Shown here: in pieces, positions 38,963 to 64,000 of the stretch
How the letters are laid out: each line of letters begins with the position of its first letter
Numbering within the stretch: position 1 is the stretch's first letter
DNA from: an uncultured Bacilli bacterium
Lineage (GTDB): Bacteria; Bacillota_I; Bacilli_A; RF39; UBA660
Assembly: GCA_963929435.1 (NCBI GenBank)
Contig: CAWVIV010000014.1
Coordinates: forward strand, 40,349 to 104,348
Length of the DNA: 64,000 nucleotides
Direction of reading: 5' to 3'
Notes under the pieces: model-generated
The model's database searches: none
What the model was told of the DNA's origin: nothing
What the model saw: the letters and a program-made list of their open reading frames with translations, nothing else
Translations under genes and position numbers: made by a program

Positions 38963-39073
38963 ATAGAATTTATTGATTTATAAAGTTCAAGTGTGATATA
39001 TTATAGTTGTAATGAAGTTTTAGTGGGCGTGTTTTTTAATACGTCCTTTTTTATTTTTAAGCGGGGTGATTAA

Positions 39074-40090
39074 ATGGTTGAATTAGAAGATAAAAGTCGG
39101 TTAAAACCTATGTTATTTGTTGATGAAATGATTTCTTATTTAAAAAATAAGAATATAAAGTTTAATTATATTAGTGAAAACGATGCTCTTAAGTATTTGA
39201 AAAGCAATAATAATTATTATAATTTAACATCATATAAACATAATTTTGAAAAATATATGTTTGATGGAAGATTTGTTGATAAATATATTGATTTAGATTT
39301 TGCATATTTAAAAGACTTGTCTATTATTGATTACAGAGTTAGATTAGTTTTGTTTAAGATGATTATAAATATAGAACATTATTTAAAAATGAAAATATTA
39401 AATACTATTGAAAATATAGATGAAGAGGATGGTTATAGAATAGTTAATTTATATTTAGATAAGGATTTTAATAGTGACAAATTTCCTAAAAAACTACATA
39501 ATAGTATTTTTAAAAAAGTTGGAAGTGAATACTATCAAAAGATATTTTCTAAATATGATATTGATAAAGATAAGAAACTTGAAAATATTCCTATATGGGA
39601 GTTTCTTGAGATTATTACTTTTGGAGAACTTGTGAATTTTTATGAATTTTATACTAAAGAATATGGTTTAAGAGAAGAAAGTAAAGATGTATATATACTT
39701 CGGGATATTGTTAAGTTAAGAAATGCAGTTGCTCATAATTCTTGTATTTTAAGTGATTTAGGAAATAAAAATAATAATTATCCTATATCATATAAAATAA
39801 TTAATTTTTTAGAATCTTGTGATGTTGGTAAAAAAATGAGAATTAAAAAGTTAAGTAATTCAAGAATTAAGCAAATTACATATACACTATATATGTTTAA
39901 TAAAATTGTAACAAGTGATGGTATTAAAGAAAATGTTATAAATGAGATTAATGATTTGTTTTATAATAGAATAATTTATCATAAAGAGTATTATAATAAT
40001 AATGAACTATTAAAATCAGTATATGCTTATTTTGAAAAAATAATTGAAAAATTTTATGTTACAGTTCAGATAGAACATGACAAAAATTAG
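39074..40090 (+). CDS. Abi_2 family (AbiD/AbiF-like) abortive-infection protein; last 10 codons supplied by the IS66-like insertion
   Basis: IDLDFAYLKDLSIIDYRVRLVLFKMIINIEHYLK and the hallmark KLRNAVAHNSCI. The IS left end begins at 40058, inside the ORF. Confidence 0.75.
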   Translation: MVELEDKSRLKPMLFVDEMISYLKNKNIKFNYISENDALKYLKSNNNYYNLTSYKHNFEKYMFDGRFVDKYIDLDFAYLKDLSIIDYRVRLVLFKMIINIEHYLKMKILNTIENIDEEDGYRIVNLYLDKDFNSDKFPKKLHNSIFKKVGSEYYQKIFSKYDIDKDKKLENIPIWEFLEIITFGELVNFYEFYTKEYGLREESKDVYILRDIVKLRNAVAHNSCILSDLGNKNNNYPISYKIINFLESCDVGKKMRIKKLSNSRIKQITYTLYMFNKIVTSDGIKENVINEINDLFYNRIIYHKEYYNNNELLKSVYAYFEKIIEKFYVTVQIEHDKN

Positions 40091-41714
40091 GTAGAACTAT
40101 CAAGTTCTATCTATTTTTATACCCGAACTGTTTTATTACTAAAAACCTCTTTTAAAGAAGAATTTAATGATTTTTTATTTTTAGAACATGTAGATGCAAA
40201 ACTTCTTATAACTACAAAGTTATTCGCTCCTTCAATACTTCTAAACTTACCAATCTTTTGTCTAATCTTTGCAAATCTTAAATCTGCTTCCGCTCTGTTA
40301 TTAGAAAATGGAACATAAAACTTCTTCAAAAATAGTAAATGATTATCTACATATTTTTCTAAACGATTTAGTAATCTTCTCTCATCTTTTTTATAAGAAT
40401 TTGTTTTCAAATCTTTTTTATATTCAAGATTACCTTCTTTTAAGATTTCTAAATATCTATTTTTAAAGCTTTCATATTCTGTATCAGAAATTCTTTCTAT
40501 ACCAGATGCTATTAATTCTTCTTTTCTATTCTTCATTTCTATTAACAATGAAGAAAGTTTCTTAGCCCATTTATGTTCAGTAAAATCTGTAACTCCTTTT
40601 AAATATCTTAAAGCATGAACATTACATTCTGCATTTCCACTTCCATAATTGTAATACATGATAAAGTGGTCATGGACTAATATACCATTAAATTGCTTTA
40701 AAAGTCCAAAGTCCTTTATCGCTTTTTCACCTCTTTTTTTACTAACATATTGTAAAGTATACTTATCATTTGAAATATTATGTATGTAATACTGTTCTCC
40801 ATTAATTTTGATTGGAGTTTCATCAACATGTAAAACGAGACTATTTAATAATTCTTTTTTGATTTTTTCATATTCTGTATTAGATAGTACATCTGATAGT
40901 CCATGAATCCAACTGTATATAGAACCTTTTGATGGAATTAATTTATTATCAGTAAATTCACCAAGTAGTGATTTTATTGCATCTAAAGAAGAACCTTTCA
41001 TATACATTAAGGCACTTATTGATTTTATATTATTTCCATATATTACCGGACTAGAAGTAATGTTTTGAGGAGTAGTTGGATAGTAAACATGTTTTATTAA
41101 GACTTTTTCTACTTTAATATCTATTTCATAAGTTACAATTGGTGTATTATTTTCTGTTAATTTATTTTTATTTTCTTCTACTATTATTATTCTATCAATT
41201 TCTTTATTTTCTATCATTTTATCTATTTTTTCTTTAGTTAAGGTTTCTCCTTTATGACCAACTTGACCACCTTGTTTTTTACCTGATTTCTCGCGGTTAT
41301 TGGTAATTACTTTTTTATATCCATTAGTAGAAGAAGGCTTACTAGAGTTAGAACTATCTTTATCATTATTATTTTTTAATCTTTCAATTTCAAGTAATAA
41401 TTTTTGATTTTTTTTATTTACCTTTTCTAGTTCTTTTGTAAGTTTCTTATTATTCTCATTTAATTCAGATATTATTAATGACATATTAAAGATAGTACTA
41501 TTTGCTTTATCTAACTTTTTATTTAATTCTTCAAATTGTTTATAAAAATCATTTACATATCCTTTTGTTGTCATATCAAATACCTACCTTTGTTTTAATT
41601 ATAAATAAATTGTGTTTTAATTAACAGTCTATTATTTTCTTTTATCTTCTAGTAAAATAGTAATAAAAAAGATAGATTTGACTTTTATTTAGTCTTTTCT
41701 ATCTGAACTGTAAC
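40058..41714 (-). mobile_element. IS66-family (single-ORF, ISBst12-like) insertion sequence (1657 bp) with 8-bp target duplication
   Basis: 18-bp inverted repeats: GTTACAGTTCAGATAGAA (40058-40075) and TTCTATCTGAACTGTAAC (41697-41714). Direct AATTTTAT at 40050-40057 and 41715-41722. Confidence 0.85.
40117..41574 (-). CDS. IS66-family transposase
   Basis: N-terminal leucine-zipper-like coiled coil, HVDETPIKING, AECNVHALRYLK and FSNNRAEADLRFAKIRQKI. Confidence 0.85.
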   Translation of the reverse strand: MTTKGYVNDFYKQFEELNKKLDKANSTIFNMSLIISELNENNKKLTKELEKVNKKNQKLLLEIERLKNNNDKDSSNSSKPSSTNGYKKVITNNREKSGKKQGGQVGHKGETLTKEKIDKMIENKEIDRIIIVEENKNKLTENNTPIVTYEIDIKVEKVLIKHVYYPTTPQNITSSPVIYGNNIKSISALMYMKGSSLDAIKSLLGEFTDNKLIPSKGSIYSWIHGLSDVLSNTEYEKIKKELLNSLVLHVDETPIKINGEQYYIHNISNDKYTLQYVSKKRGEKAIKDFGLLKQFNGILVHDHFIMYYNYGSGNAECNVHALRYLKGVTDFTEHKWAKKLSSLLIEMKNRKEELIASGIERISDTEYESFKNRYLEILKEGNLEYKKDLKTNSYKKDERRLLNRLEKYVDNHLLFLKKFYVPFSNNRAEADLRFAKIRQKIGKFRSIEGANNFVVIRSFASTCSKNKKSLNSSLKEVFSNKTVRV

Positions 41715-46781: not shown

Positions 46782-46939
46782 ATTTTTCAAGCCTCCTTTC
46801 ATAAATTGGAAGGAGACGACACTCATATTGAAATGTTCCTATAAATATATTATCAAATTAAATTTTATATAGCAAGAGAAAATGTAATAAATTAGTTACG
46901 AATTTTCGTAATATTAAATGTATTAAGGCAGTGATATTT

Positions 46940-47827
46940 ATGATTCTTTTTGTAAGTGGTAGATGTGATATAGTCGCTTTCTATACTCCTTGGTTTATGA
47001 ATAGATTAAAAGAAGGATATGTTGATGTTAGGAATCCTTTTTATAAGAAACAAGTGAGTAGAATATACTTTGATGATGTAGATTTAATATATTTTTGTAC
47101 TAAAAATCCTAGACCTATTGTTCCTTATTTAAAAGAGATAAAGAAACCTATTTTATTTAATGTAACTATTACTCCTTATAAAAGAGATATTGAACCTAAT
47201 GTATTTAATAAAGATAAGATAATTGAAAGTGTTATAGAGATATCTAAAATAATAGGAAGTGGCAATATTTATGTTAGATATGACCCTATCTTTTTAAGTG
47301 ATAAATATAATTTAGATTATCATATTAAAGCTTTTTCTAGACTTTGTAGTTTACTTAATGGTTATGTTAAACATATTATTGTTTCTTTTATAGATGATTA
47401 TAAAAATGTAAGAAAGAATATGGGAGTACTTAGAGTTAAACCTTTTACTAGTAATGACTTAAAAGAAATAGGAATATCTTTTAGTTCTATTGCAAGTAGT
47501 TATAATATGACAGTACAAACTTGTTTTGAAAAAGAAAATTTAGTAGAATATGGATTTATTAAAGGAGATTGTTTAGGAGTAGAACTTGCTAAAAGACTTA
47601 CTGGTAAGACTAAATTTAAGAAAAGTAGGATTAGAAAAGGTAATCTTTGTAATTGTGTAGAAATGGTTGATATTGGTTATTATAATTCTTGTAAACATTT
47701 TTGTAAGTATTGTTATGCTAATTATAGTGAGGATGAAGTAATTAGTAATTCTATGAAACATAATGTAAATTCATCTTTGCTTATTGGTGAATTAGAAAAA
47801 GATGATATAATAAAAGTGAGAAGGTGA
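46940..47827 (+). CDS. DUF1848 domain protein
   Basis: MILFVSGRCDIVAFYTPWFMNRLKEGYV..VRNPF N-terminus and a C-terminal Cys cluster CNCVEMVDIGYYNSCKHFCKYCYA. ATG 46940 is preferred over GTG 46931. Confidence 0.65.
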   Translation: MILFVSGRCDIVAFYTPWFMNRLKEGYVDVRNPFYKKQVSRIYFDDVDLIYFCTKNPRPIVPYLKEIKKPILFNVTITPYKRDIEPNVFNKDKIIESVIEISKIIGSGNIYVRYDPIFLSDKYNLDYHIKAFSRLCSLLNGYVKHIIVSFIDDYKNVRKNMGVLRVKPFTSNDLKEIGISFSSIASSYNMTVQTCFEKENLVEYGFIKGDCLGVELAKRLTGKTKFKKSRIRKGNLCNCVEMVDIGYYNSCKHFCKYCYANYSEDEVISNSMKHNVNSSLLIGELEKDDIIKVRR

Positions 47828-48318
47828 TAGTTGTGAGAATTAATTATTCTGATGAAAAAATTGTTGATAGTGATAAGTCTATATTTTTAGCAGGTCCTAC
47901 ACCAAGAGGGGAAAATGCTAAGTCTTGGAGAGTAGATGCTTGTAAAAAATTAGAGGAGTTAGGCTTTGATGGTGTTGTTTATGTTCCTGAATATTCATCT
48001 TGGAAGCATAAAGAAGATTATGTAGATCAAGCAATGTGGGAAAGAGAAGGATTAACTAAAGCTTCTATTATAGTATTTTGGATACCTAGAAGTTTACCTG
48101 ATATGCCTGCATTTACTACTAATGTAGAATTTGGATATTGGTTGCACTCAAAAAAGGTGATTTATGGAAGACCAGATGATGCAGTTAAAATTAAATATTT
48201 AGACTGGTTATATGAGGTGGATTATAATGAGAAACCTTTTAACAATTTAGATGATTTGTTGAAGAATGCGATTAAAAAGGTAAATGATAAAGAGAAAATT
48301 TTATCTAAGGATAAATAG
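47824..48318 (+). CDS. Nucleoside 2-deoxyribosyltransferase-like protein
   Basis: IFLAGPTPRGENAKSWR...GFDGVVYVPE pattern of the Nuc_deoxyri_tr2-type family. GTGA overlap with the DUF1848 gene. Confidence 0.55.
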   Translation: MIVVRINYSDEKIVDSDKSIFLAGPTPRGENAKSWRVDACKKLEELGFDGVVYVPEYSSWKHKEDYVDQAMWEREGLTKASIIVFWIPRSLPDMPAFTTNVEFGYWLHSKKVIYGRPDDAVKIKYLDWLYEVDYNEKPFNNLDDLLKNAIKKVNDKEKILSKDK

Positions 48319-50980: not shown

Positions 50981-50990
50981 ATATTTTTTG

Positions 50991-51166
50991 TAGCAAAATA
51001 GGCCTTTTTACATATTTTAATGTAGAGGTGAATATTATGAATGAGCGAAGAGTAACTGGTGTGGTGGTTGATGCTGGACATGGAGGAATAGGAGTATCCC
51101 AAAAATAGGGAAATGACTATGAATGCTGATAAATACAAGGAAAAGAGATACTTTAGTAAGAAAAGT
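50991..51166 (+). repeat. att-like repeat copy 1: 96-bp amidase 5' segment (50991-51086) plus 80-bp conserved island left end (51087-51166)
   Basis: The 96 bp is identical by eye to 62585-62680. The whole 176 bp matches 59051-59226 with 4 mismatches. The truncated ORF reads MNERRVTGVVVDAGHGGIGVSQK*. Confidence 0.9.
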
Positions 51167-51209
51167 GTCTTTTTTAGTGGTATAATAGCTTGTGAGGTGA
51201 AATTAATTA

Positions 51210-51779: not shown

Positions 51780-51897
51780 TAAAAAGTTTTGATTTTGAGC
51801 ACCATAAATAATAATGGTGTTTTTATTTTAAATGAAAGCGAGGTAGATATTTATAAATTTAAATTATGCAATATTTAGAAGTGAACCTATTTTTACA

Positions 51898-53130
51898 TTG
51901 AATGATTTAGCACAGATAGGTTCTCATAATAAAAGGGAGAAGAAAGCTTATAATTCTAATCCTGATATAAATAAAAATTTAAGTAAAAATAATATAGAAT
52001 TAGTACCCTTGACAGATAAATATGTTAAGGGTTTTTATAATTTAACTAAAGAATATAAAAAAGAATATGATGAGAGAATGAAAACAGAACGTGAAGATAG
52101 AAAGAAAAATTTAAAACAGATGTTAGATAAGTCAAGAAATGTAGTTGCAGATGAATTATTATTTACTGCTAAATTTGAATTTTTTGATAATATAACAATA
52201 GATGATATAAAAGAGTGGTCTAATACTTGTATGGAGTTTGTTTATGAAGATTTGGGTTATAAAAAAGAACAAGTTTTGCATAGTGTAATTCTTTTAGATG
52301 AAAAGACACCACATATTCATTGTGTAGTTGTTCCTTTAGTTAGAAAGTTTTATAATAGAACTAAAACAGAAAGATATACTATATCTAAGAAACAATACAT
52401 TAAAAATAATATTCATTTATCAGAATTATAAGATAAATACTATCAAAGACTAACTAGTAAAGGTTATGATTTAGAACTAGGTATTAAAGGAAGTATAGCT
52501 AAACATCAAAAAGTCAGAGAGCTTAAAAAAACTACTAGATATTATGAACAGAAAGTAGATGTTTTAAACTCTAAAATAGATGAAACTATGAAGGAATTTA
52601 ACGAGAAAAAAAACTACCCAAAAATATTCCTTTTAATAAAACTCATGGTCTAGTAGAAAAGGAAACTTTTGATAGTATGAATAAAGTAATTAAAGAAACA
52701 AAAAAACGATATATTTAGAGCCAAAAATTAAAACTCTTTTTAATGAAGTAGATAGTTTTACCAAAAGCCATCAGAGTTTAGAAAAAGAAAATCAATATAT
52801 GAAAAGGAGATTAAAGCATTGACTACTAGAAATCAAAATCTTACAAAAGAAAATAATACTTCAAAATCCTACATTAAAGCCATATTATAGGCAATAAAGC
52901 ACTTTTTTAGGTATTTATTACAAATTGGTAATGAACCTACAAAAGAAACTACTGCACGCGAGATAAAGTAATATTATGATAATAAAGATTTTGATAGTAA
53001 TGATGCTTATGATATTTCAAATGACACTACTAAAGAAGATGAACTATTTGATTATGATAATATAGCTTGTTATTATAAAGCAAAAAAAGATAACGTTGGA
53101 GATAAAGATGATTTTGAGTTAACAAGGTAG
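51898..53130 (+). pseudogene. Decayed MobV/Pre-family relaxase
   Basis: The N-terminal 177 codons have MobV features (NPDINKNLSKNN, HIHCVVVPL). An in-frame TAA at 52429 interrupts ..LSEL*DKYYQRLTSKGYDLELGIKGS.., and the rest continues in other frames after A-run frameshifts. Confidence 0.6.
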
Positions 53131-53193
53131 ATAGAATTATGGTATACTAGTGATATAAAGATTGGTTTAAGTGTCAGAAGTGGAGTGAATTTA

Positions 53194-56100
53194 ATGAATC
53201 AAGAAATTTCTAATAAGGAGAAAATAATATCACTATATAAATTTATTATAGAGTTTTGTAAGAGCAAACAAAAAATTATATGTAACGACAATGATTATTT
53301 ATGGAAATATCAGATTAGTAATGTTCCACAAGATAATGAAAATATTAGTATATTGTATAAGGACAAAGTCGAATTGGAAGATGAGATACTTGATGATAAT
53401 AGTTTGGATTACTTATTAAAAGTTCATAAGCCTGAATTTGAAAAATGTCCTGAACCTGATGCATCTTTTAAAAAGTGGCTTGTAAAAGGTTGGGATTCTT
53501 ATAGAAATATTGTTCAAGTTAAAGAGAAAATAGAATATGAAAATAATCAGAACAATTCTGAAAAAGTAATAGAAATGTTTACAGATGATTTGGAACGTGT
53601 GAGTGCATATAAAGTATGGCTTGAAAAAAGAAAACAATGGGTTGAAAGGCAATTAAAAATAGAAAGGACTAGAGATTTCTTTACTATTTTATATATGAGG
53701 TATGTAGACTTACAACGCGATTCTGAAACTACTGAGTTAGTACTTGCTAATGGTTATATAACTGATAAGAATAACGAAAATATATGTCATCCTGTGTTGA
53801 CAAAAAGACTAAACATGAATTTTGATGCTAATGAAAATACTATATATGTAATGGACACTGACGCTAGAACTGAATTATACTCTGAACTGTTTCAAGTTAT
53901 GGATGATATTGATCTTGATTCATTAACTACATTAAATTCTGATTTGATGGTACATGATTATCATCCAATGGATAGAAATGATACACCAAACTTTTTAAAA
54001 ATACTTGTTCATAACTTGAGTTCTGACAGTAAATATGTAGATGGTCAAGATGATATTTCTGAAAATAGAATTAATATGTTTTATAGACCATGTTTAATTA
54101 TGCGAAAAAGAATGGATGGAACAATAAAAACTACTGAACAGATTATTAAAAATATAGAAGAAACTGGTTTTATTCCAAGCCATTTGATAGATATCATTAG
54201 TGGTGGCAAATTAGAAAAACCTGAGGAAACTGAAGAAACTATTGAGGAATCGTTAGCTAAAGTCGGTGGAGAGAGTGTTGATATATTATTATCTAAAGAA
54301 GCAAATAGGGAACAGTTAGAAATTGCAAAAAGAATAGGTAAATACAATGCAGTATTGGTGCAAGGGCCTCCTGGTACTGGGAAAACGCATACAATAGCAA
54401 ATTTAGTTGGACACTTTTTGGCTCATGGGGAAAGTGTTTTGGTTACTAGTTATACAAAAAAAGCTTTAACTGTTTTAAAAGACAAATTGCCAAAAAACAT
54501 TCAAAGTTTATGTGTGTCTGTTTTAGATGATTCAAATGAAGATATGGAAGACTCTATTGATGGTATAACGGATTATATGTCTAGGACCACTTCATTTGAA
54601 TTAAAACATAAAATGGAAGAATTGAAAGAAAGTCGATTAAATGTTATTAAGGAATTGGCTTCTGTAAGAAGAAAAATATTTAATATTATTAATAGTGAAT
54701 ATAGAAGTATTGTTTTAGATGGCGAAGAAATTTCTCCTATAGATGCGGCTTGCTTTGTTCAACAAAATAAAGAAAGATTGTCTTATATTGATGGTAGAGT
54801 AAAATTGTATTCTCCATTACCGTTAACAATAAATGAGTTTAATTATTTATATGGAACAAATTCTAAAATTTCTTATGATGAAGAAAAAGAACTTAATTAT
54901 AAATTGCCAGCTCCAGCAAAATTAATTCATCCTGATAAATTTGAAAAATTATTAGCAATAATTGATAATTCAAAGAAGAAAATTGAGGAAATTGGAAATT
55001 TAAAAAAATGGACTATACAGATTAATGATGATTTGTTTTTTGAAACTAATTTTGGTAATTTTTATATTACAAATTATAATGCTAGTGATATAACTGAATT
55101 GAAAAATTATATTGATGGTTTTTCTAATTTTGATAATTGGGTAAAAGCAGTTTGTTGTGATGGAAAAAGAGGTGGTGCTCATAAAAAGAGATGGCTAGAT
55201 TTAATTAATGAGATAAAAACTACTTCAAAAATAAGTGAAGATTTTATATATAATCATTTTGGTAAAAAAGTTTCTACAAAAAATAATAGTAATGTTTGTG
55301 ATTATAAAATAGGTTTGCGAAAATTAAAAAAAATCTTGGATAGAAAAGGGAAAATTGGTAAAATCGATTTAATTTTAAATAATGAATTTAATTTATTGCT
55401 ATCAGAAGTTCAAGTTAATGGTAAACAAATTACAACAAAAGAAGAATGTGATTATGTACTTGATTATATTGATTTAATAGAAGCGAGAAGTAAACTTGCT
55501 AATTTATGGGATAATCTGTTATCTTGCTATGGAGTTACAAAATTTTATGATTTAGATAATTCAGAGCCGGAAAGAGTTGCTGAAAAATGGATTGATATTA
55601 TAGTTAAATATCTAAATTGGTATGATAAGGAATATAAGAATTTAACTAAATACTTGGAAAAAGCCAATTTTCCTTATCAAATTATATTACAATTGAATGA
55701 TTTAGATAAAGATATTGATCATATAAATAAAATATTTGATTCTTTACAAAATGTAATTCCTTATTTGTTGAATATATGCGAAGCAAAAATTGCTATTGAT
55801 AACGCCAATCAAGAAATAGAAAATTCAGTAACTGTTTTGGATGACAACGGTTTAATAAATTCTTCAGTTTGTATTAATTTAAAAAAATCATTGAAGAATT
55901 ATGATAATGAAAAATATTTAGAGTTTTTTAGACAATTAGAAGATTTATATCAAAAATACGAAATTTTAAGTAAAAGAAATTCTTTATTGGAAAAATTAGA
56001 ATCAGTTGCACCACAATGGGCAAGCGATATTAGAAACAGGCGTGGTATTCATGGTTTAAGTGAAACTCCTACTAATATTCAAGACGCTTGGAAATTTAAA

Positions 56101-58419
56101 CAATATTTAAGTATTTTAGATGATATGACAAAAGAGTCATTAGATGATTTGCAAAAAACGAGTCAACGGTTAAGTTCAAACTATAGGAAAATCACTGAAA
56201 AATATGCAGGGATATGTGCTTGGTATAATTTGTTGGCAAGAACTGAATGTGATATTGATATGAAACAAGCGTTGAAAGGATGGGAGCTAACAATTAAAAA
56301 AATTGGTAAAGCTACTGGGAAAAACGCTCCTAAATATAAAGCAAAGGCTCGTGAATTAATGGCAAAATGTCAAAATGCTGTTCCTTGTTGGATAATGCCT
56401 ATGAATAAAGCTATTGAATCTTTAAAACCTGGTGAAAACGAATTCGATGTTATTATCATTGATGAAGCGAGTCAATCAGATACATCTTCTTTAGCAATAG
56501 CTTATTTTGCAAAAAAAATGATAGTTGTTGGAGATGATAAACAAGTAAGTCCTATGGCAGTTGGTGTAGAAGTTGATAAGATTAATGCCTTAGAAAAAAT
56601 GTTTATTAAAGATAAAATTCCAAATTCTCATTTATATAGTGCTAAAACTTCATTATATGATATTGCTGCTACAACTTTTCAACCATTAATGTTAAAAGAG
56701 CACTTTAGATGTGTGCCAGAAATAATTGGATTTAGTAATATGCTTTCATACGATTTTAAAATAAAACCACTAAGAGATTCGAATGATACTGATTTATTGC
56801 CTTCTGTTATAAATTATAGAGTACAGGGTAAGAGAATTGGAAAAACTAATAGAGTAGAAGCTGAAACTATTATTTCATTTATAAAAGGTTGTTTAAATAT
56901 TAAAGAGTATGAAGGTAAAACCTTTGGGGTAATTTCATTATTAGGTGATGAACAGGTTAGATTAATTGAACAGTTATTATATCAATATATTGATATACGT
57001 GATATTGAAGAAAGAAAGATTTTGGTTGGAAACGCTTCTAATTTTCAGGGAGATGAACGAGATGTTATTTTCTTATCAATGGTAGATAGTAGCTCAGATA
57101 AAGGTCCATTACCTTTGCAAGGAAATGGAGTTGAAGATTCAGTTAAAAAGAGATACAACGTTGCTGTTAGTAGAGCACGTGATCAAGTATGGGTGGTTAA
57201 TTCATTAGATTCAGCAAATGATTTAAAATCGCTGGATATTAGGAAAAAATTATTAGATTATGCCACAAATCCTAAGGCATTTTTATTACAGTCAGATGAA
57301 GTAAAAAACAAATCTGATTCAGTTTTTGAAGAGCAAGTTGCAAAAAAATTGATATCTCAAGGTTATCATATTGTTCAACAATATCCAGTTGGAGCCTATA
57401 GGCTAGATATAGTTGTAATATGTGAAAATAGAAAGATTGTAATAGAATGTGATGGAGAAAGGTATCACACTGGCGAAGAAAAAATCAAGGAAGATATGCA
57501 ACGTCAAGCTATTTTGGAACGTATTGGTTGGAGATTTATAAGAATAAGGGGAAGTCAATTTTTTAAAAACCCTGAAGCTACAATGAATCAAGTTTTTGAA
57601 GAATTAGAATCATATAAAATTTATCCAGAAAGTATAAATATAAGTAATGAAGAAAGAACAAGTGAACTGTTTGAAAAAGTAAAAAATGAATCTTCAAAGT
57701 TTTTATTAGAAATACATCAAAAGGATAATGATGGCAATTTGGATGATATATTGTATGCTTTGGATAATAAATCTTATAAAGTTTCTGATAGTCAAAAAAA
57801 TAATGATACTTTATTAAAAAACAAAATTGATTCAATTAGTATAAAGCAAAATAAGCAAGTTAATGAAACCATATTTGATAAAGATAGTGATTTATTAGAT
57901 TTAGAGTTTGGTGAGAGTCAATTTAAATATATGGTTTTATTTAGTGAGGGAGTAAGTAGAAAGGATATTTCATTATATTATAATGTTGCCTATGATACGG
58001 TAAAGAAATCTTTGCAGACGGTTTCTGAAAAATATCATCAACCTTATGTTGAAAAATGTATAAGTAGCTTTATTGAAAAATATAAAGGTAGTACTGAATA
58101 TGATGAAATAATTAATATGTATTTGAAGTGGAATCAAAATAGAGAAAATGAAAAGTTTAATGATAATGTTTTTTCGACAACTTCTAATTTAGAATTAAAA
58201 CATGATAATGATGATTTTATAACTGATTTAAAGAAAAATAATTTTAAATACATTGATAATAGAGAAAAATCTGGAATTGTTTGGATTATTCATAATGATT
58301 CAACTTCTGAATTAATAAAGAGTGTTTTAAGTAAATATAAGTATCCATATACATTTGAGCGAAGAGGCTCAATTGTTACTGAAAATAAACCTGCATGGAG
58401 AGTAATGTTTAAGTATTAG
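53194..58419 (+). CDS. Giant (about 1741 aa) DUF4011-type SF1B (Upf1/Mov10-like) helicase fused to a Vsr/DUF559-like PD-(D/E)xK endonuclease and a C-terminal extension
   Basis: Walker A GPPGTGKTH (about nt 54364) and motif II VIIIDEASQ (about nt 56449) are separated by about 700 aa. Further motifs: VGDDKQVSP, LKEHFRCVPEIIGFSN, FQGDERDVIFLSMV, NVAVSRARDQVWVV. Nuclease module: YRLDIVVICENRKIVIECDGERYH..GWRFIRIRG. ATG 53194 is preferred (8 nt after GGAG); GTG 53185 is possible. Confidence 0.85.
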   Translation: MNQEISNKEKIISLYKFIIEFCKSKQKIICNDNDYLWKYQISNVPQDNENISILYKDKVELEDEILDDNSLDYLLKVHKPEFEKCPEPDASFKKWLVKGWDSYRNIVQVKEKIEYENNQNNSEKVIEMFTDDLERVSAYKVWLEKRKQWVERQLKIERTRDFFTILYMRYVDLQRDSETTELVLANGYITDKNNENICHPVLTKRLNMNFDANENTIYVMDTDARTELYSELFQVMDDIDLDSLTTLNSDLMVHDYHPMDRNDTPNFLKILVHNLSSDSKYVDGQDDISENRINMFYRPCLIMRKRMDGTIKTTEQIIKNIEETGFIPSHLIDIISGGKLEKPEETEETIEESLAKVGGESVDILLSKEANREQLEIAKRIGKYNAVLVQGPPGTGKTHTIANLVGHFLAHGESVLVTSYTKKALTVLKDKLPKNIQSLCVSVLDDSNEDMEDSIDGITDYMSRTTSFELKHKMEELKESRLNVIKELASVRRKIFNIINSEYRSIVLDGEEISPIDAACFVQQNKERLSYIDGRVKLYSPLPLTINEFNYLYGTNSKISYDEEKELNYKLPAPAKLIHPDKFEKLLAIIDNSKKKIEEIGNLKKWTIQINDDLFFETNFGNFYITNYNASDITELKNYIDGFSNFDNWVKAVCCDGKRGGAHKKRWLDLINEIKTTSKISEDFIYNHFGKKVSTKNNSNVCDYKIGLRKLKKILDRKGKIGKIDLILNNEFNLLLSEVQVNGKQITTKEECDYVLDYIDLIEARSKLANLWDNLLSCYGVTKFYDLDNSEPERVAEKWIDIIVKYLNWYDKEYKNLTKYLEKANFPYQIILQLNDLDKDIDHINKIFDSLQNVIPYLLNICEAKIAIDNANQEIENSVTVLDDNGLINSSVCINLKKSLKNYDNEKYLEFFRQLEDLYQKYEILSKRNSLLEKLESVAPQWASDIRNRRGIHGLSETPTNIQDAWKFKQYLSILDDMTKESLDDLQKTSQRLSSNYRKITEKYAGICAWYNLLARTECDIDMKQALKGWELTIKKIGKATGKNAPKYKAKARELMAKCQNAVPCWIMPMNKAIESLKPGENEFDVIIIDEASQSDTSSLAIAYFAKKMIVVGDDKQVSPMAVGVEVDKINALEKMFIKDKIPNSHLYSAKTSLYDIAATTFQPLMLKEHFRCVPEIIGFSNMLSYDFKIKPLRDSNDTDLLPSVINYRVQGKRIGKTNRVEAETIISFIKGCLNIKEYEGKTFGVISLLGDEQVRLIEQLLYQYIDIRDIEERKILVGNASNFQGDERDVIFLSMVDSSSDKGPLPLQGNGVEDSVKKRYNVAVSRARDQVWVVNSLDSANDLKSLDIRKKLLDYATNPKAFLLQSDEVKNKSDSVFEEQVAKKLISQGYHIVQQYPVGAYRLDIVVICENRKIVIECDGERYHTGEEKIKEDMQRQAILERIGWRFIRIRGSQFFKNPEATMNQVFEELESYKIYPESINISNEERTSELFEKVKNESSKFLLEIHQKDNDGNLDDILYALDNKSYKVSDSQKNNDTLLKNKIDSISIKQNKQVNETIFDKDSDLLDLEFGESQFKYMVLFSEGVSRKDISLYYNVAYDTVKKSLQTVSEKYHQPYVEKCISSFIEKYKGSTEYDEIINMYLKWNQNRENEKFNDNVFSTTSNLELKHDNDDFITDLKKNNFKYIDNREKSGIVWIIHNDSTSELIKSVLSKYKYPYTFERRGSIVTENKPAWRVMFKY

Positions 58420-58517
58420 AGTTGTATTACTACTTGTATTTTAGCATAGTGAAGATTTAAAAATTACAGAGTTTTTATTAAGTGATTGACTTTATTATGA
58501 GAGGAATGAATTTTATA

Positions 58518-58769
58518 ATGAAACAAGATTTTAAATATGAGATTATAAATAATATAGGAGTTATTTCTGAAAATAATACGTGGGCAAAGGAATTAAATCG
58601 TGTTAGTTGGAATGGTAATGAACCAAAATATGATATTAGAGATTGGTCAAAAAATCATGAAAAAATGGGCAAGGGCATTACTTTATCTGAAGAAGAACTT
58701 AGAAGTTTAAAAAAAATATTGGATGAAGAAATAAAACTATTGGACGAAGAGGCTAGTAACGACGATTAA
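58518..58769 (+). CDS. PC4/YdbC-like ssDNA-binding protein
   Basis: MKQDFKYEIINNIGVISENNTWAKELNRVSWNGNEPKYDIRDWSKNHEKMGKGITLSEEE closely parallels my recollection of Lactococcus YdbC (FKFEIVEHL..KEINRVSFNG..KFDIR.WS..H.KMGKGITLS.EE). Confidence 0.7.
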   Translation: MKQDFKYEIINNIGVISENNTWAKELNRVSWNGNEPKYDIRDWSKNHEKMGKGITLSEEELRSLKKILDEEIKLLDEEASNDD

Positions 58770-59050
58770 ACTAAAATTCCATTTTAGTAACACGCTATGA
58801 TATTGGCAGAGCTAATAACGCTGTGTGCAAAGGAAGTTCCCTTTTGACTCCTAAATTAACGACAAATTATAAAGTGCTATAATATAATTCTGTTGAATAA
58901 AAATAGCCTTATTGCCTAAAAAGCAAAAAGGTTATTTTTTATTAAATTTTAGGTTTTATTGTTGTTAATATTTTACTTAGATTTTCTAATGTTTTATAAT
59001 TAGAAAGTCTTTTATTTTTTTTAGATATTAAGCTTAATGCTTATAAATAG

Positions 59051-59226
59051 TAGCAAAATAGGCCTTTTTACATATTTTAATGTAGAGGTGAATATTATGA
59101 ATGAGCGAAGAGTAACTGGTGTGGTTGTTGATGCTGGACATGGAGGAATGGGATTATCCCAAAAATAGGGAAATGACTATGAATGCTAATAAATACAAGG
59201 AAAAGAGATACTTTAGTAAGAAAAGT
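59051..59226 (+). repeat. att-like repeat copy 2: 96-bp amidase 5' segment (59051-59146) plus 80-bp conserved island left end (59147-59226)
   Basis: One mismatch (59126) against copies 1 and 3 in the 96-bp core. It is preceded by AAATAG, as copy 3 is. Confidence 0.9.
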
Positions 59227-59286
59227 ATATTTTATTATAAAAATATTAGCACTAATCTATATTAGGTAACTATTTGTAAAAATATG

Positions 59287-59472: not shown

Positions 59473-59551
59473 AGTAAGAGATATTTAGGTAATTGCATTA
59501 ATAGTTGGTTAAGTTTACATCTTAACGAATATATAAATGGAGGTGATTAAT

Positions 59552-60766
59552 TTGAAAAAATGTAATTTTGATTATTTATTTAATACTCCTAATATTGAGA
59601 ATATAGAGACTTTTATTAATCAACTTACTAATAAGTATATCTTTGAATTAAAAAAAATAGAATTGTTAAATAGTAAGATTTTATTAAGCTACGATAAAGA
59701 TAAATATATTGAATTAATAAAGAAACATAAAAATATTGTATTGTCACTTATTAAAGAAGTTATCAACTTTTTTCCACAGTTATCTAATGTGCCTCATATT
59801 GTTTTTATACATGGTAGTTTTGCTAAAACTTTAAACAGGATTAATAGCGATATAGATTTAAATATTTTATATCCTAATAATTTTAAAAGTGAAATATTGC
59901 CAATCGAAGAAATAATTTCAATTATTTTGCAAAAAGTTGTTGGATATAGTGGTAGGGATAAAATACATACTATGATGCTTTATACATGTAATGATTTGAA
60001 TGATAGTTTGGTTGAATCTACTGAAGAATGTACTATTTCGTTTCCAAACAAACAAATTTATAAGTATTACTGTCGACCAAATTATGATGAAATAATGTAT
60101 AAAATAAAAAATTCTTCTAGAGATTATAATGATTTTTTAAATTATATAAGAAATAATATTACTACTGGTAAGTGTGAAGAATGGTGTTATTCTTATGAAC
60201 AATTAATTACTAATTGTGAGGACTGCAATATATATGATGCGTTAAATAGTATTGATGAAGATAATGTAGAAAGAACGAATTATATTAATTATAATAAGTT
60301 AATAGAAAAATTAAAGAAGAAAATGGATGAATATAGTTTTGATATTAATAACGTAGATACAATTAGTGATGTTAATCATAATTTAAAGGTTAAAAATTTA
60401 GGATTTATATACAAAACATTATCATTAATAAGAAGATATTTATTTATTAATGAAAATCCAGTAAATGGTTTGGATTTCTTTGAAATATTCGATAAACAAG
60501 AATTTATTAAGTTATTTTCTAGCGAAGAGTTGGAGAATATAAAAACTAATATTTTTAGATATCTTTGGCAACTTTCAAGACTGGAAAATTTGTTTATAAG
60601 TAGGAATATTAATTTTAGTTCTAGAAATTATGATAGTTTTGAAACTGAATTTGTTTGTCAATTATATAATAATTTATATAATGAAGATTTAATTTGTGTT
60701 CAAAATGAATCTACTGATAATCTTCATAAATCTTTGAAAAAAGTATTAACAAGAATTGAAATATAG
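59552..60766 (+). CDS. Pol-beta-superfamily nucleotidyltransferase with long helical C-terminal region
   Basis: FIHGSFAKTLNRINSDIDLNILY matches G-S-x10-D-x-D. TTG 59552 is preferred (6 nt after GGAGGTG); the listed ATG 59537 is the alternative. Confidence 0.7.
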   Translation: MKKCNFDYLFNTPNIENIETFINQLTNKYIFELKKIELLNSKILLSYDKDKYIELIKKHKNIVLSLIKEVINFFPQLSNVPHIVFIHGSFAKTLNRINSDIDLNILYPNNFKSEILPIEEIISIILQKVVGYSGRDKIHTMMLYTCNDLNDSLVESTEECTISFPNKQIYKYYCRPNYDEIMYKIKNSSRDYNDFLNYIRNNITTGKCEEWCYSYEQLITNCEDCNIYDALNSIDEDNVERTNYINYNKLIEKLKKKMDEYSFDINNVDTISDVNHNLKVKNLGFIYKTLSLIRRYLFINENPVNGLDFFEIFDKQEFIKLFSSEELENIKTNIFRYLWQLSRLENLFISRNINFSSRNYDSFETEFVCQLYNNLYNEDLICVQNESTDNLHKSLKKVLTRIEI

Positions 60767-60774
60767 GAGGAAAT

Positions 60775-61860
60775 ATGAGTAAAATAGTAATGACGATGCC
60801 AATAAAGCCACAGAAAGAAACTAATATAGGTATGTATATTGCTCCAACATTGATGAATGTTTTGAGTGATATTCTATCATGTGATAGTGTGATGGCTATT
60901 AATCTATTAAATACATATAAAGATAAGGATTCAGAATTAAAAACTTTTATAGATGATTTAGATCGTCAAGGAATAATATATAATAATTTATTTATTGATA
61001 AAGATCATGCCTGTGAAATATTATCTTTAATTCAAGAATTAGTATATGATGGTTTTGTGAAAAAATCGAATGAAGAAATTTTTAGATGTGATTGTGGTAA
61101 AGTTGATATTTTGAAACAAGGAATTAACTCTAATATAAGTAAATTATACTATGAAAAAAATGGTACATATTATTGTAAAGAGTGTGGAAGTGAATGTAAA
61201 TCTTTTAGAGAAGAGGTATTGACGCTTGAATTGTCAAAAGATATTGATGATTCAATATTAATAGTACCAACATTTTTAAAAAATGATGTTAAGCATTTGA
61301 GTAAAACTTTTAAAGGTGGCAAATTACTTATTTCAAAGCAACGCGATACAGGTTATCAACTAATGGTTGATAATAAAAAATTTAATATTGATATTGATTT
61401 TCTTTGGACTAATTATTTTAGGCTTTTTGATAACGAACAGATTATAATGCTTGCTAGTAATCATCAAATATATCAAATGTATTTATTAAATTATTTAAAT
61501 AAAATTATTTCTGGCAATGAGATTTGTTTTGTAGCTAATCCTTATATGAATAAATCAAATGTTATGAATCCGTTAGCAGAATATGAAAAAACAGAAGATA
61601 GTATTTATAAAAAATTGTTTATTCTATATAATTTAAAGTGGAGAAACAAAAATTGTGATTGGTCACCTAGTATAATAGATTTTTTAAGTAATATAAGTAC
61701 TACAAGAAGAAATAATTTATATAGAGTTATAGAGAGTTGTGGAAAGAAAATTGATGAAAGTAGGCTACCTTTAGATTTATATTTAGAAAGTATTTTACAA
61801 AAGGAAATAAATATGCAACGAAATATTCCTGAATCAAAAAAGTTAGTTAAAAAAATGTAA
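60775..61860 (+). CDS. Zinc-ribbon protein resembling a degenerate class Ia aminoacyl-tRNA synthetase catalytic core (MetRS/IleRS-like), HIGH/KMSKS absent
   Basis: AGGAGG RBS. Motif order: ELVYDGFVKKSNEEIFRCDCGK, YYCKECGSEC, LLISKQRDTGY (cf. ISRQR.WG), DIDFLWTNYF (cf. YVWFDA). The HIGH position reads NIGMYIAP. Similarity was judged by eye only. Confidence 0.45.
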   Translation: MSKIVMTMPIKPQKETNIGMYIAPTLMNVLSDILSCDSVMAINLLNTYKDKDSELKTFIDDLDRQGIIYNNLFIDKDHACEILSLIQELVYDGFVKKSNEEIFRCDCGKVDILKQGINSNISKLYYEKNGTYYCKECGSECKSFREEVLTLELSKDIDDSILIVPTFLKNDVKHLSKTFKGGKLLISKQRDTGYQLMVDNKKFNIDIDFLWTNYFRLFDNEQIIMLASNHQIYQMYLLNYLNKIISGNEICFVANPYMNKSNVMNPLAEYEKTEDSIYKKLFILYNLKWRNKNCDWSPSIIDFLSNISTTRRNNLYRVIESCGKKIDESRLPLDLYLESILQKEINMQRNIPESKKLVKKM

Positions 61861-61893
61861 TAGTATTAAAATAGTTATGGAGATGGTGATATT

Positions 61894-62493
61894 ATGTATA
61901 GTGTGTTATTTAGTAAAATTGAATTTGGTATGGATTTAGTAGTAGAACGGTTAAAAGAGTTTGTTAAACCTGATTATAAAGTAGCAATTTTTCCATGGGC
62001 TTTTCCTGTCGAGATAACAAGTGAAGAATTTGAGAAAGAGTATTTTCCTATAGATGGTAGAAGATATAATAAATACTATACTGAATTAAAAAAAATAGGT
62101 ATTAGTAAAGAAAATATTAGAGTATGTAACCCTTATAAAGATACTAGAAATGATCTTATTGAAATTATCCAAAATAGTGATATTTTACTTTTGCCAGGTG
62201 GAAATCCTGAAATGTTTTTTAAAAAAGTTTTACATGATACGGAATTAATATATTATATTAAACATTTTAAAGGAATAATTATTGGTGAGAGTGCAGGGTG
62301 TGAGTTACAATTAAAAAGATATTTTATTACTGCTAAAAATAATTATTATAAGTACTTTGCATTTTATGATGGATTTGGAGTGTTAGATGATCCTTTTTAT
62401 ATGGATGTCCATTCAATAAACAATAAGAGATATTTAGCAAAATTACAAGAAGTTGCTAATGATAAAAATAAAACGTGTATATGCTATTTTTGA
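61894..62493 (+). CDS. Peptidase S51 (dipeptidase E/cyanophycinase-like) family protein, 3' end frameshifted
   Basis: ILLLPGGNPEMFFKK and IIIGESAGCE (nucleophile elbow). The family-typical C-terminus RVYAIFDDGALIYNRDS..FK* is in another frame up to 62584. One extra A in GATAAAAATAAAACG (62461-62475) explains this. Confidence 0.7.
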   Translation: MYSVLFSKIEFGMDLVVERLKEFVKPDYKVAIFPWAFPVEITSEEFEKEYFPIDGRRYNKYYTELKKIGISKENIRVCNPYKDTRNDLIEIIQNSDILLLPGGNPEMFFKKVLHDTELIYYIKHFKGIIIGESAGCELQLKRYFITAKNNYYKYFAFYDGFGVLDDPFYMDVHSINNKRYLAKLQEVANDKNKTCICYF

Positions 62494-62584
62494 TGATGGT
62501 GCACTTATTTATAATAGAGATTCTAGTAAATTAGAAATATTTGGTAATGTATTAACTTTTGTACCAAAATGTAATTTTAAATAG

Positions 62585-62680
62585 TAGCAAAATAGGCCTT
62601 TTTACATATTTTAATGTAGAGGTGAATATTATGAATGAGCGAAGAGTAACTGGTGTGGTGGTTGATGCTGGACATGGAGG
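62585..62680 (+). repeat. att-like repeat copy 3 (native 5' end of the intact amidase gene)
   Basis: Identical by eye to 50991-51086. It continues into the intact ORF. Confidence 0.9.
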
Positions 62681-64000
62681 TGCGGACCCTGGTGCTGTAA
62701 GTGGTGGTTTACAAGAGAAAGATTTTACATTAGAAGCTTCTTTATATATGGCTGATAGATTAAAAGAGTTAGGTATACCTGTTGTTTTAACTAGAGATTA
62801 TGATGAGAATATAAGTAGAACAGAAAGACTTAGACGTGCTAATGAAGCTTTTGGTGGTAGTCCTAATGCTATACTTATATCTAATCATATAAATGCTGGA
62901 GGTGGAGAAGGGGCTGAAGTTATTTATGCTTTACGTAATAATTCTACTTTAGCACAATCTATCTTGGAAGAAATAGGTAGTGAAGGACAAATTATGCGTA
63001 AATACTATCAAAGAAGACTTCCTGAAGATCCATCAAAAGACTACTATTACATTATTAGAGAAACTACTCCTATGCAGTCAGTGTTAGTAGAATATGGTTT
63101 TATTGATAATGCTAATGATAGAGTTAAATTACAAAATGATTTATTAAACTATGTGGAAGCGGTAGTTAGAGCGATAGCAGAGTATGCTGGTGTTCCTTAT
63201 ACTCCTCCTGAGGGTAGTGGTAATAATTTCTATACTGTAGTAAAAGGTGATAGCTTATGGAGTATTGCTAATCGTTTCGGGGTTACAGTCCAAGCTTTAA
63301 GAGATGCTAATAACTTAACTAGTGATGTGTTAAGTGTAGGACAAATTTTAAGAATACCTGGTAGTAATGAAGGTGATGAAATTGTTCCTCCAAGTGGTAA
63401 TGTCACTTATACTGTGCAAAGAGGAGATAGCCTTTGGAGCATAGCAAGTCGTTATGGAATAAGTGTTAATGATTTAAGACGTGCCAATAATCTTACTAGT
63501 GATACTTTAAGTATAGGGCAAGTTTTAATAATCCCAGGAGTAGGTAGTGGTAATGATAATATTACAGGACCATCTACTACTTATACTGTTGTAAAAGGTG
63601 ATAGCTTGTGGAGCATTGCCAATCGTTTTGGAGTTACAGTCCAAGCTTTAAGAGATGCTAATATTTTAACTAGTGATGTGTTAAGTGTAGGGCAGGTATT
63701 AACTATACCAGGTGTTAGTGGAGAAGAAGATAATGGTGAAGATGAGGATAATGGAGCAGTCTTTTATTATACTGTAGAGCGGGGAGATAGTCTTTGGAGT
63801 ATAGCAAGACGTTTTGGCGTTACGGTTCAAGAAATAAGAGATGCTAATGATTTAACGAGTGATACTTTAAGTGTTGGACAATCTTTAATAATTCCAGGGA
63901 TTAGTGCAGGAGATGACTTAGAAGATAATGAAGAAAATGATACAGTTCCTACTACTTATACAGTAGCCTCTGGTGATAGTCTATGGAGCATTGCTAATCG
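62631..64000 (+). CDS. N-acetylmuramoyl-L-alanine amidase (Amidase_3) with at least 5 C-terminal LysM repeats, 3' end outside window
   Basis: Not in the ORF track because no stop lies inside the window. AGAGGTGA RBS. VVVDAGHGGADPGA, NHINAGGGEGAEV, then repeated Y(T/Y)V(V/Q/E)(K/R)GDSLWSIA.R(F/Y)G modules from about 63231. Confidence 0.9.
   Translation, partial: MNERRVTGVVVDAGHGGADPGAVSGGLQEKDFTLEASLYMADRLKELGIPVVLTRDYDENISRTERLRRANEAFGGSPNAILISNHINAGGGEGAEVIYALRNNSTLAQSILEEIGSEGQIMRKYYQRRLPEDPSKDYYYIIRETTPMQSVLVEYGFIDNANDRVKLQNDLLNYVEAVVRAIAEYAGVPYTPPEGSGNNFYTVVKGDSLWSIANRFGVTVQALRDANNLTSDVLSVGQILRIPGSNEGDEIVPPSGNVTYTVQRGDSLWSIASRYGISVNDLRRANNLTSDTLSIGQVLIIPGVGSGNDNITGPSTTYTVVKGDSLWSIANRFGVTVQALRDANILTSDVLSVGQVLTIPGVSGEEDNGEDEDNGAVFYYTVERGDSLWSIARRFGVTVQEIRDANDLTSDTLSVGQSLIIPGISAGDDLEDNEENDTVPTTYTVASGDSLWSIAN

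Follow-up and report, generated by a model that had tools for sequence, protein, structure and literature searches.

The stretch of DNA analysed here (the window) comprises 64,000 nucleotides (nt) of contig CAWVIV010000014.1 from an uncultured Bacilli bacterium; it is AT-rich (~27% GC) and belongs to a 1.5 Mb genome assembled from metagenome data. Within it lies a cassette, island A, that carries two adjacent intact genes, one for a giant protein joining a helicase to a nuclease (the helicase-nuclease) and one for a small protein related to the single-stranded DNA (ssDNA) binder YdbC. What is new here is a one-to-one linkage of this YdbC-like subunit with a swappable C-terminal tail of the helicase-nuclease, a tail that lacks a Pfam model or a PDB match. 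The two genes and their parts are listed below, with amino acid (aa) numbers of the helicase-nuclease counted from the GTG start (1744 aa).

53194..58419, + strand, helicase-nuclease gene of 1741 aa, an uninterrupted open reading frame (ORF); 1744 aa if read from the alternative start, GTG 53185
53194..54300, + strand, conserved, family-specific N-terminal domain (aa 1 to ~372), with many invariant residues in the homologue alignment
54304..54648, + strand, N-terminal part of RecA1 with Walker A (Pfam AAA_11/AAA_30/AAA_19; DNA2, Upf1 and Sen1 matches)
54652..56364, + strand, insert of ~570-600 aa between Walker A and motif II (aa ~490-1060), with columns conserved within the family
56416..57204, + strand, helicase motif II through motif VI (Pfam AAA_12 at aa 1165-1339; Sen1 structure 5mzn aligns with aa 1085-1341; invariant motifs)
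57325..57609, + strand, Vsr/DUF559-type (MTES_1575) endonuclease domain, aa 1381-1475 (Pfam; invariant columns)
57913..58164, + strand, predicted LuxR/GerE-type helix-turn-helix (HTH) domain, aa ~1577-1660 (AlphaFold2 predicted local distance difference test score, pLDDT, ~93; Foldseek)
58207..58416, + strand, C-terminal tail domain, variant A, aa ~1675-1744, ..IDNR..SGIVWI...ERRGSIVTENKPAWRVM (AlphaFold2)
58518..58769, + strand, gene of 83 aa for a YdbC/PC4-family ssDNA-binding protein (Pfam PC4; YdbC matches in the PDB)

An earlier note on this DNA, written from the letters alone, had described a single ORF of about 1741 codons in which Walker A (near aa 394) and motif II (near aa 1093) are about 700 aa apart and are followed by Upf1-like superfamily 1B (SF1B) motifs and a Vsr/DUF559-type nuclease. 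This description holds in all its parts. The ORF is intact from 53194 to 58419, and ATG 53194 is its probable start because a GGAG box lies 8 nt upstream. Walker A (GPPGTGKT) occupies aa 394-401 and motif II (DEAS) aa 1093-1096, at a spacing of ~700 aa. Both are invariant across 20 aligned homologues with identities down to 47%, as are D1408, E1421, D1423 and H1428 of the nuclease in the same alignment; to judge from the sequence, the catalytic motifs of helicase and nuclease are intact. A Pfam scan placed AAA_11 at aa 374-488, MTES_1575 at aa 1381-1474 (E 7e-30) and DUF559 at aa 1392-1475 (E 7e-11), and the nearest solved structures to the motor are the helicase cores of Sen1, DNA2, Upf1 and IGHMBP2, a set of matches that assigns it to the Upf1-like SF1B group. 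The N-terminal 374 aa had no Pfam match at E<=5, and the insert at aa ~490-1060 matched no significant Pfam family; with the family profile, neither region gave a PDB sequence match. Alignments to two PADLOC defence models, PDC-S37 and MkoC, start within the insert (aa 836-871). The label 'DUF4011-type' given to the architecture in the earlier note has to be dropped, as neither DUF4011 (PF13195) nor DUF3320 has a Pfam match anywhere in the protein, and DUF4011 is absent from the precomputed Pfam domains of 120 homologues. Nor was there a Pfam match to a PLD-family nuclease domain in the helicase-nuclease.

Most family members stop 50-90 aa past the nuclease, at a total of ~1500-1550 aa, and the longer forms carry a C-terminal extension, which is 269 aa long in the window protein. 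Two confident parts emerged when the extension (aa 1476-1744) was modelled with AlphaFold2 from a 22-sequence alignment. The first is modelled as the tetra-helical HTH fold of LuxR/GerE (NarL/FixJ C-terminal) type: Foldseek matched it to DosR (1zlj), DegU (7x1k), VraR (7ve5), GerE (1fse) and NarL with template modelling (TM) scores of 0.75-0.82 and probability 1.0, and superposition gave a root-mean-square deviation of 1.1-2.2 Å over ~60 residues. An extension of about 300 aa with an HTH-like stretch had been proposed before, and the model bears this out, at a length of 269 aa and with aa ~1577-1660 superposing on the LuxR/GerE/NarL-type HTH. Pfam GerE had no match at E<=5 on the extension. 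The HTH is confined to the window's sub-clade; other tail-A homologues and long forms have a low-complexity linker in its place.

The second part is the tail domain of ~70 aa, with a predicted alpha-beta-beta-alpha-beta-beta topology (modelled alone, AlphaFold2 pLDDT 89 and predicted TM score 0.78). Foldseek returned no PDB fold match for it (best E 0.7, TM below 0.5), and no Pfam model matches. We considered whether the tail is itself PC4-like and rejected this, as hhalign of the tail against PC4 profiles gave a probability of 0.3%. The domain is widespread: its profile found 1,238 clusters (at 50% identity) at E<=1e-3 among 1.84 billion representatives. Carriers range from 62 to 1936 aa, and the domain is mostly C-terminal, at times in tandem or stand-alone; among proteins P0123-P0270 we observed 2-4 tandem copies (P0123, 1410 aa) and stand-alone forms of 62-86 aa. 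Pfam companions in 78 tail-bearing proteins were MTES_1575 (21), DUF559 (15), DUF4145 (4), topoisomerase IA (2), sigma-70 region 4 (2), the ZorC-type EH signature (2), and NgoMIV, Mrr, LytTR and RNase_T (1 each). Given this range of companions, the tail seems to be an accessory domain, not described before, that goes with DNA enzymes and defence nucleases.

A PC4/YdbC-like gene had been placed about 100 nt downstream of the helicase stop, and it is found there: its probable start, ATG 58518, lies 98 nt past that stop. The 83-aa product matches Pfam PC4 (PF02229) at E 3.4e-12 (46 bits against a cut-off of 25) and, in the PDB, Lactococcus lactis YdbC (2ltd/2ltt, E 7.8e-23), 3pm7 (E 3.8e-23) and SP_0782 (2l3a, E 1.3e-16); it is ~60% identical to YdbC over 68 residues. 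YdbC is a dimer that binds ssDNA with nanomolar affinity, its conserved residues being Asp/Arg/Trp in beta3 and Met/Lys/Gly/Thr in beta4, and it has been described as monocistronic with variable neighbours (PMC3575825). The partner keeps these conserved residues (..PKYDIRDW..HEKMGKGIT..), and D39, R41, W43, K52 and G53 are invariant in 15 partners. We predict that it is a YdbC/PC4-fold dimer that binds ssDNA non-specifically.

Across the family the tail comes in two variants, A (consensus ..IDNR..S.IVWV....ERRG.IAT.N.PAWRVM) and B (..IDKR...GALWIIGG.EL...F.FK..GG.ATKG.PGWW.K), and the presence of the partner follows the variant. A YdbC-like gene lies directly downstream in 15/15 variant-A or A-like loci (window, L001, L002, L004/L005, L006, L013, L014, L016, L027, L033, L034, L035, L110, L111 and L044), and in none of the ~12 variant-B loci or of the ~50 tail-less loci. 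This count includes L110 and L111 (tail A), looked up afterwards as a test of the linkage and both found to have the PC4 gene, as well as the variant-B test look-ups L112 and L113. In L044, tail A in a shifted frame precedes PC4; the tail of L018, which also has PC4, is divergent. The intergenic gap between helicase and PC4 is 9-15 nt where the genes are called. With lineages conservatively collapsed (12/0 vs 0/60), Fisher's exact test gives p ~7e-14. The dedicated ssDNA-binding partner proposed in the earlier note thus gains the backing of strict co-occurrence with one C-terminal tail variant.

In a tree of the core region, tail A with PC4 falls at no fewer than 4-5 distinct positions, intermixed with variant-B and tail-less forms: L002 (A, with PC4) is sister to L037 (B, without PC4), and the tail-less L003 is sister to the window's clade. 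This interleaving indicates that the 3' module was gained, lost or exchanged as a unit. The partner also co-diverges with the helicase-nuclease (Mantel r 0.74 between PC4 and core, 0.65 between PC4 and tail, both p=2e-4). In-frame read-through from helicase to PC4 was considered and set aside as chance: the stop-to-stop frames agree in 5 loci and disagree in the others and in the window. As separate observations, Oribacterium sp. KHPX15 (L022 5732-5986) has a YdbC-like ORF ~4 kb upstream of a variant-B helicase-nuclease, not directly downstream, and the variant-B loci L007 (12152-12571) and L037 (11570-11980) have a different conserved small gene of ~125 aa next downstream. The latter carries the motif ..KVIHS..CG....HIEQA.KHGY..C.KC, is probably zinc-binding and may be an alternative partner; as a general second small partner it was rejected, occurring in L007 and L037 only.

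Mean pairwise identity is highest for the partner (71%), followed by the core (60%) and the tail (43%). This ranking bears on an alternative in which the partner acts as an antitoxin-like brake. The YdbC-like protein would then hold the helicase-nuclease inactive via the tail until titration by phage ssDNA, or by a phage protein, removes it and frees the nuclease, possibly with abortive infection as the outcome. The stronger conservation of the partner would suit a brake, as would the tight operon linkage with the small gene downstream, the potential self-toxicity of a large nuclease, and the finding of a PhageMaP screen that the helicase-nuclease Hhe becomes toxic upon expression of certain phage genes (10.1101/2024.10.10.617714). 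Yet most family members, being tail-less or variant B, do without such a brake, YdbC homologues are generic ssDNA binders found alone in many Firmicutes, and classical antitoxins are usually encoded upstream. We consider the brake unlikely, if still deserving of attention.

RNA data cover the pair as well. One metatranscriptome contig spans both genes:

52992..58812, + strand, metatranscriptome contig of 5840 nt over both genes, from a 95%-identical variant (run X25, chicken gut)

Its depth is 505, against 9-25 for flanking contigs, and contigs of RNA runs X26 and X27 also end at 58812, a pattern consistent with one well-expressed bicistronic transcript. The expressed variant (X25/X26/X27 contigs) has a 19-nt insertion near the helicase stop (window 58402), and the extreme C-terminus and the intergenic spacer thus vary between strains. 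For the promoter, a consensus scan offered one weak candidate just inside the segment shared with L001, which begins at 53100; the scan found as many sites as expected by chance.

53119..53148, + strand, sigma-70-like promoter candidate TTAACA-18-TATACT with TG (consensus scan, weak)

Together with the linkage, these data weigh on whether the PC4/YdbC gene is simply a frequent passenger of defence islands and no functional partner at all. YdbC genes are usually monocistronic and their contexts variable, as such a passenger would have it. Against this stand the linkage to a single tail variant (15/15 vs 0/~60), intergenic distances of 9-15 nt, the co-divergence of the two genes, their joint gain or loss on several occasions, and a single RNA contig spanning both, and we strongly disfavour the passenger account, to the point of giving it very little weight.

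The helicase-nuclease belongs to a large family. A word-indexed protein search found >3,100 relatives of the same full-length architecture, and a scan of one genome per species confirmed 578 loci, the best 80 of which fall in Bacillota, Fusobacteriota, Bacteroidota, Acidobacteriota, Pseudomonadota, Saccharibacteria, Verrucomicrobiota, Planctomycetota and Chloroflexota. Its distribution across phyla is patchy. On sequenced plasmids there are 3 near-full-length records, two of them Mb-sized replicons, and no family member was found in sequenced phages. A 95%-identical copy of the window's helicase-nuclease lies in a metagenome-assembled genome labelled 'uncultured Tenericutes bacterium' (L006), and near-identical DNA comes mostly from chicken and bird gut metagenomes.

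Known defence models recognise the family in part. The best-scoring PADLOC model, PDC-S37 (PDLC05009, no curated cut-off), matches at E 1.3e-61, with aa 871-1514 aligned to model positions 728-1368 of 1550; the best score for this model among 20 family members is 5.6e-67. MkoC (E 2e-42, over the helicase part), MkoA (E 3e-27) and Hhe (PDLC02194, E 1.1e-38, over the C-terminal half) follow. NCBIfam holds models named 'anti-phage protein ProA' (NF058533) and 'Hhe' (NF042953); the former scores 219 bits (185 bits in the genome run) with a cut-off of 1500 bits, the latter 186 bits (166 bits in the genome run) with a cut-off of 2000 bits. Only positions 344-391 and 1246-1754 of the 1797 of the Hhe model align with the genome, and the ProA model is likewise partial. 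All 20 aligned family members score similarly against the known defence models. Membership in Hhe was rejected on these scores (166-186 against 2000 bits) and on the lack of DUF4011, and membership in ProA at 185-219 against 1500 bits. Since the known models match only partly, we place the protein in neither Hhe nor ProA and, more tentatively, outside PDC-S37 as well, and class it, by sequence comparison, as a sister of Hhe, ProA and PDC-S37 with a motor of Mokosh type, within a large unnamed family. The parallel to Mokosh drawn in the earlier note is upheld by the MkoC and MkoA matches (2e-42 and 3e-27), here with no PLD domain. Its remark that no role had been assigned experimentally to this architecture no longer holds, because Hhe, which combines helicase and nuclease domains in one gene, is established as a working anti-phage system (10.1101/2024.10.10.617714); Hhe has been grouped with MkoA/MkoC as SF1_Upf1 (10.1101/2024.02.29.582594). 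The publication behind 'anti-phage protein ProA' could not be traced in the literature.

The earlier note had also placed the pair in a mobile cassette with a dead relaxase, and the surroundings agree. Island A is bounded by direct repeats of 184 bp, and its relaxase frame is full of stop codons:

50990..51173, + strand, left direct repeat of island A (first of three copies), 184 nt, 97% identity to 59050-59233
51823..53135, + strand, decayed Mob_Pre (MobV-type) relaxase pseudogene (Pfam Mob_Pre match within a fragment of 177 aa, 51898-52431)
59050..59233, + strand, right direct repeat of island A, equal to the left repeat of island B (repeat comparison)
62584..62767, third repeat copy, at the start of a LysM amidase gene, 65% identity to the copy at 50990-51173

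The three direct copies of the 184-nt segment delimit two tandem inserts ahead of the LysM amidase gene. Island A holds a 189-aa ORF without a Pfam match, the Mob_Pre pseudogene, the helicase-nuclease and the YdbC-like gene. An intact 441-aa Mob_Pre relative aligns along 51823-53064 by tblastn, where the window's frame is riddled with stop codons; the gene is intact in relatives (441 aa in L103, ~410 aa in L006). Other species of the genus have differing cargo at this M18 peptidase-amidase junction, including DUF1186/SEC-C, PRiA4_ORF3, a CDF transporter, RsgA, island B and an intact Mob_Pre; island B is the sole cargo in one species, and a second holds unrelated genes alongside an intact Mob_Pre. 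The idea of a defence-specific hotspot in the genus was rejected on this varied, non-defence cargo, and the junction is therefore a general cassette hotspot.

Neither the helicase-nuclease nor the ydbC-like gene was found in any of the 23 congeneric genomes searched, so the two came in jointly with the island. Together with the 6/8 annotated homologue contexts that hold defence or mobile genes, this absence from 23/23 congeners marks the gene as accessory and not part of a conserved core genome. The same finding counts against a housekeeping role, in which the protein would be a Dna2-like DNA-repair helicase-nuclease with a cofactor resembling a single-stranded DNA-binding protein. The motor is similar to DNA2 in sequence, and a helicase-nuclease with an ssDNA binder repeats the logic of Dna2-RPA. 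However, the gene is missing from the 23 congeners searched, patchy across phyla and inside a repeat-bounded cassette, and its domain order and nuclease type are unlike those of Dna2, which makes housekeeping repair highly improbable.

Other parts of the window show further mobile or defence-like content. Island B (59537-62493) encodes a Pol-beta nucleotidyltransferase, a 361-aa protein without a Pfam match and an S51-like hydrolase, none with a PADLOC match; it stands alone at the same hotspot in another member species of the genus (L106 6628-9581), at 96-98% protein identity. A DUF1848 protein at 46931-48318 (Pfam 6.6e-88; PADLOC 'RTasDUF1848', DRT-associated, 1.4e-32) is encoded by a gene that overlaps one like nucleoside 2-deoxyribosyltransferase, with no reverse transcriptase nearby. 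An AbiD/Abi_2-like gene (39074-40090; PADLOC AbiD 1.1e-19) lies between IS1595-like and IS66-family transposases within 37883-41574, an arrangement suggestive of another small patch of defence or mobile genes.

Annotated contexts of homologues include defence or mobile-element genes in 6/8 cases:

L001 context: Cap4-type nuclease, PemK, Mrr/FokI, SLFN-type helicase, Mob_Pre
L002 context: HIRAN, DUF6361, SNF2-DUF4391-KAP-methylase
L004 context: TnpV, Mob_Pre, Fic
L110 context: type III restriction enzyme, two WYL regulators, integrase
L111 context: TIR/SEFIR protein, relaxase
L112 context: Zorya-like ZorA/OmpA/SNF2 genes, relaxase

In a crude census, 109 neighbour proteins from 12 PC4-type loci were compared with PADLOC and Pfam. 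No conserved third gene around the pair appeared among them. Because this census is heterogeneous, we propose no third component and make no quantitative claim of defence enrichment.

The recurrence of Mob_Pre or MOB relaxases and TnpV near the genes raises the question whether the pair serves the mobile element and not host immunity, through ssDNA processing in rolling-circle replication or mobilisation, or through competition between elements. An ssDNA binder with a 5'-3' helicase would fit transfer intermediates. But the relaxase in the window is dead while both genes are intact, many homologues are chromosomal and without relaxases, the family is rare on sequenced plasmids (the 3 records above) and absent from phages, and Vsr-type nucleases do not feature in the mobilisation machinery known so far. 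We judge service to the mobile element to be improbable.

On balance we lean, by a modest degree, towards reading the pair as a two-component variant of the anti-phage/anti-plasmid helicase-nuclease class, carried as a horizontally mobile, self-contained module; this is in keeping with the anti-phage or anti-plasmid role that the earlier note had inferred. It draws on the matches to defence models, the invariant helicase and nuclease residues, the kinship of the partner with YdbC, the tail-partner linkage with its repeated placement on the tree and its co-divergence, the accessory distribution, the contexts of homologues, the RNA contig and the precedent of Shedu. Several findings weigh against this reading. 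The hotspot holds non-defence cargo in other species of the genus; homologue neighbourhoods are heterogeneous, 2/8 annotated contexts being plain housekeeping, and the 109 neighbour proteins include few defence genes (2 type IIG restriction-modification, 2 SNF2, 2 Mob_Pre). The Hhe and ProA scores are far under the curated cut-offs and cover only the C-terminal half of the helicase and the nuclease. L012 is the sole exception to the linkage, with a PC4 gene and no recognisable tail. Finally, the RNA contig represents a 95%-identical variant in a metatranscriptome, and its apparent transcript ends could be artefacts of DNA carry-over or of breakpoints in the assembly.

We infer a defence role, physical docking of the YdbC-like protein on the tail and ssDNA as the trigger. 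In the mechanism we propose, the family-specific N-terminal domain is presumed to be regulatory or a sensor. The YdbC-like dimer would coat ssDNA exposed on entering or replicating foreign DNA, and the variant-A tail would be the route by which this dimer loads or licenses the helicase-nuclease there, a division of labour comparable in function to that of RPA and Dna2. The Upf1-like SF1B motor would translocate 5'->3' on single-stranded nucleic acid and the Vsr/DUF559-type endonuclease would nick or cut DNA, so that motor and nuclease might then degrade the invading DNA. A more specific proposal, which we put forward tentatively and as less probable than the defence reading itself, is that the tail is an undescribed, widespread accessory domain whose variant A forms a docking platform for the YdbC/PC4 dimer; the protein would then be the first bacterial immune helicase-nuclease to outsource ssDNA sensing to a distinct PC4-fold subunit, after the fashion of Dna2 and RPA.

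If this proposal is true, the helicase/Vsr family would have an exchangeable sensor slot at its C-terminus, and the orphan YdbC family, with known structure and ssDNA binding but no known biology, would gain a role as cofactor of defence nucleases. Helicase-nuclease fusions like Hhe, ProA and Mokosh are common in bacterial immunity, while their triggers and mechanisms are largely unknown, and the sub-clade offers a genetically defined handle on both. Given the one-to-one tail-partner linkage, a sensor or adaptor interface is predicted that can be tested, and ssDNA is indicated as the signal. The analysis also brings out a small domain family without a Pfam model that occurs on restriction nucleases, ZorC-like proteins and topoisomerases. 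Even if the module proves ordinary, an unnamed and very widespread family joins the candidate defence genes missed by current annotation tools.

Comparison with known systems sets out what the pair shares with each. Hhe is likewise a giant polypeptide in which an Upf1-like SF1 helicase precedes a Vsr/DUF559-type nuclease, with a homologous C-terminal half (E 1e-38 to 1e-55), and an accessory gene in defence or mobile contexts. Unlike Hhe, the window protein has no DUF4011/DUF3320, differs in its N-terminal domain and insert, and comes with a tail domain, a LuxR-type HTH (in its sub-clade) and a paired YdbC-like gene. ProA and PDC-S37 are the best-scoring defence models and have the identical helicase-nuclease order, but the window protein is far below the ProA cut-off and its PDC-S37 match is partial. 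Mokosh (MkoA/MkoB; type II MkoC) has a homologous Upf1-like (COG1112-type) motor and also couples a helicase to a nuclease; its nuclease is PLD whereas that of the window is Vsr/DUF559, the N-terminus differs, and the window protein has an ssDNA-binding partner. L. lactis YdbC and SP_0782, PC4-fold ssDNA binders (DUF2128), are homologous to the partner, which keeps their DNA-binding residues; YdbC is monocistronic, whereas the partner gene strictly shares an operon with a single tail variant of the helicase-nuclease. With Dna2-RPA the likeness is a functional analogy only: an SF1B 5'-3' helicase is fused to a nuclease and works, in the window presumably, on ssDNA with a separate ssDNA-binding protein, and the window's motor matches DNA2 by sequence. 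The Dna2 nuclease, however, is N-terminal, of PD-(D/E)xK type and with an iron-sulphur cluster, RPA has the OB fold, and neither window component belongs to the Dna2 or RPA families. For Shedu, a PC4/Whirly-fold domain has been proposed as the nucleic-acid sensor (10.1101/2023.08.10.552793), so that here too a PC4-fold module is the proposed sensor of an immune nuclease; in Shedu this module and a DUF4263 nuclease form one polypeptide, without a helicase, whereas in the window it is a separate subunit.

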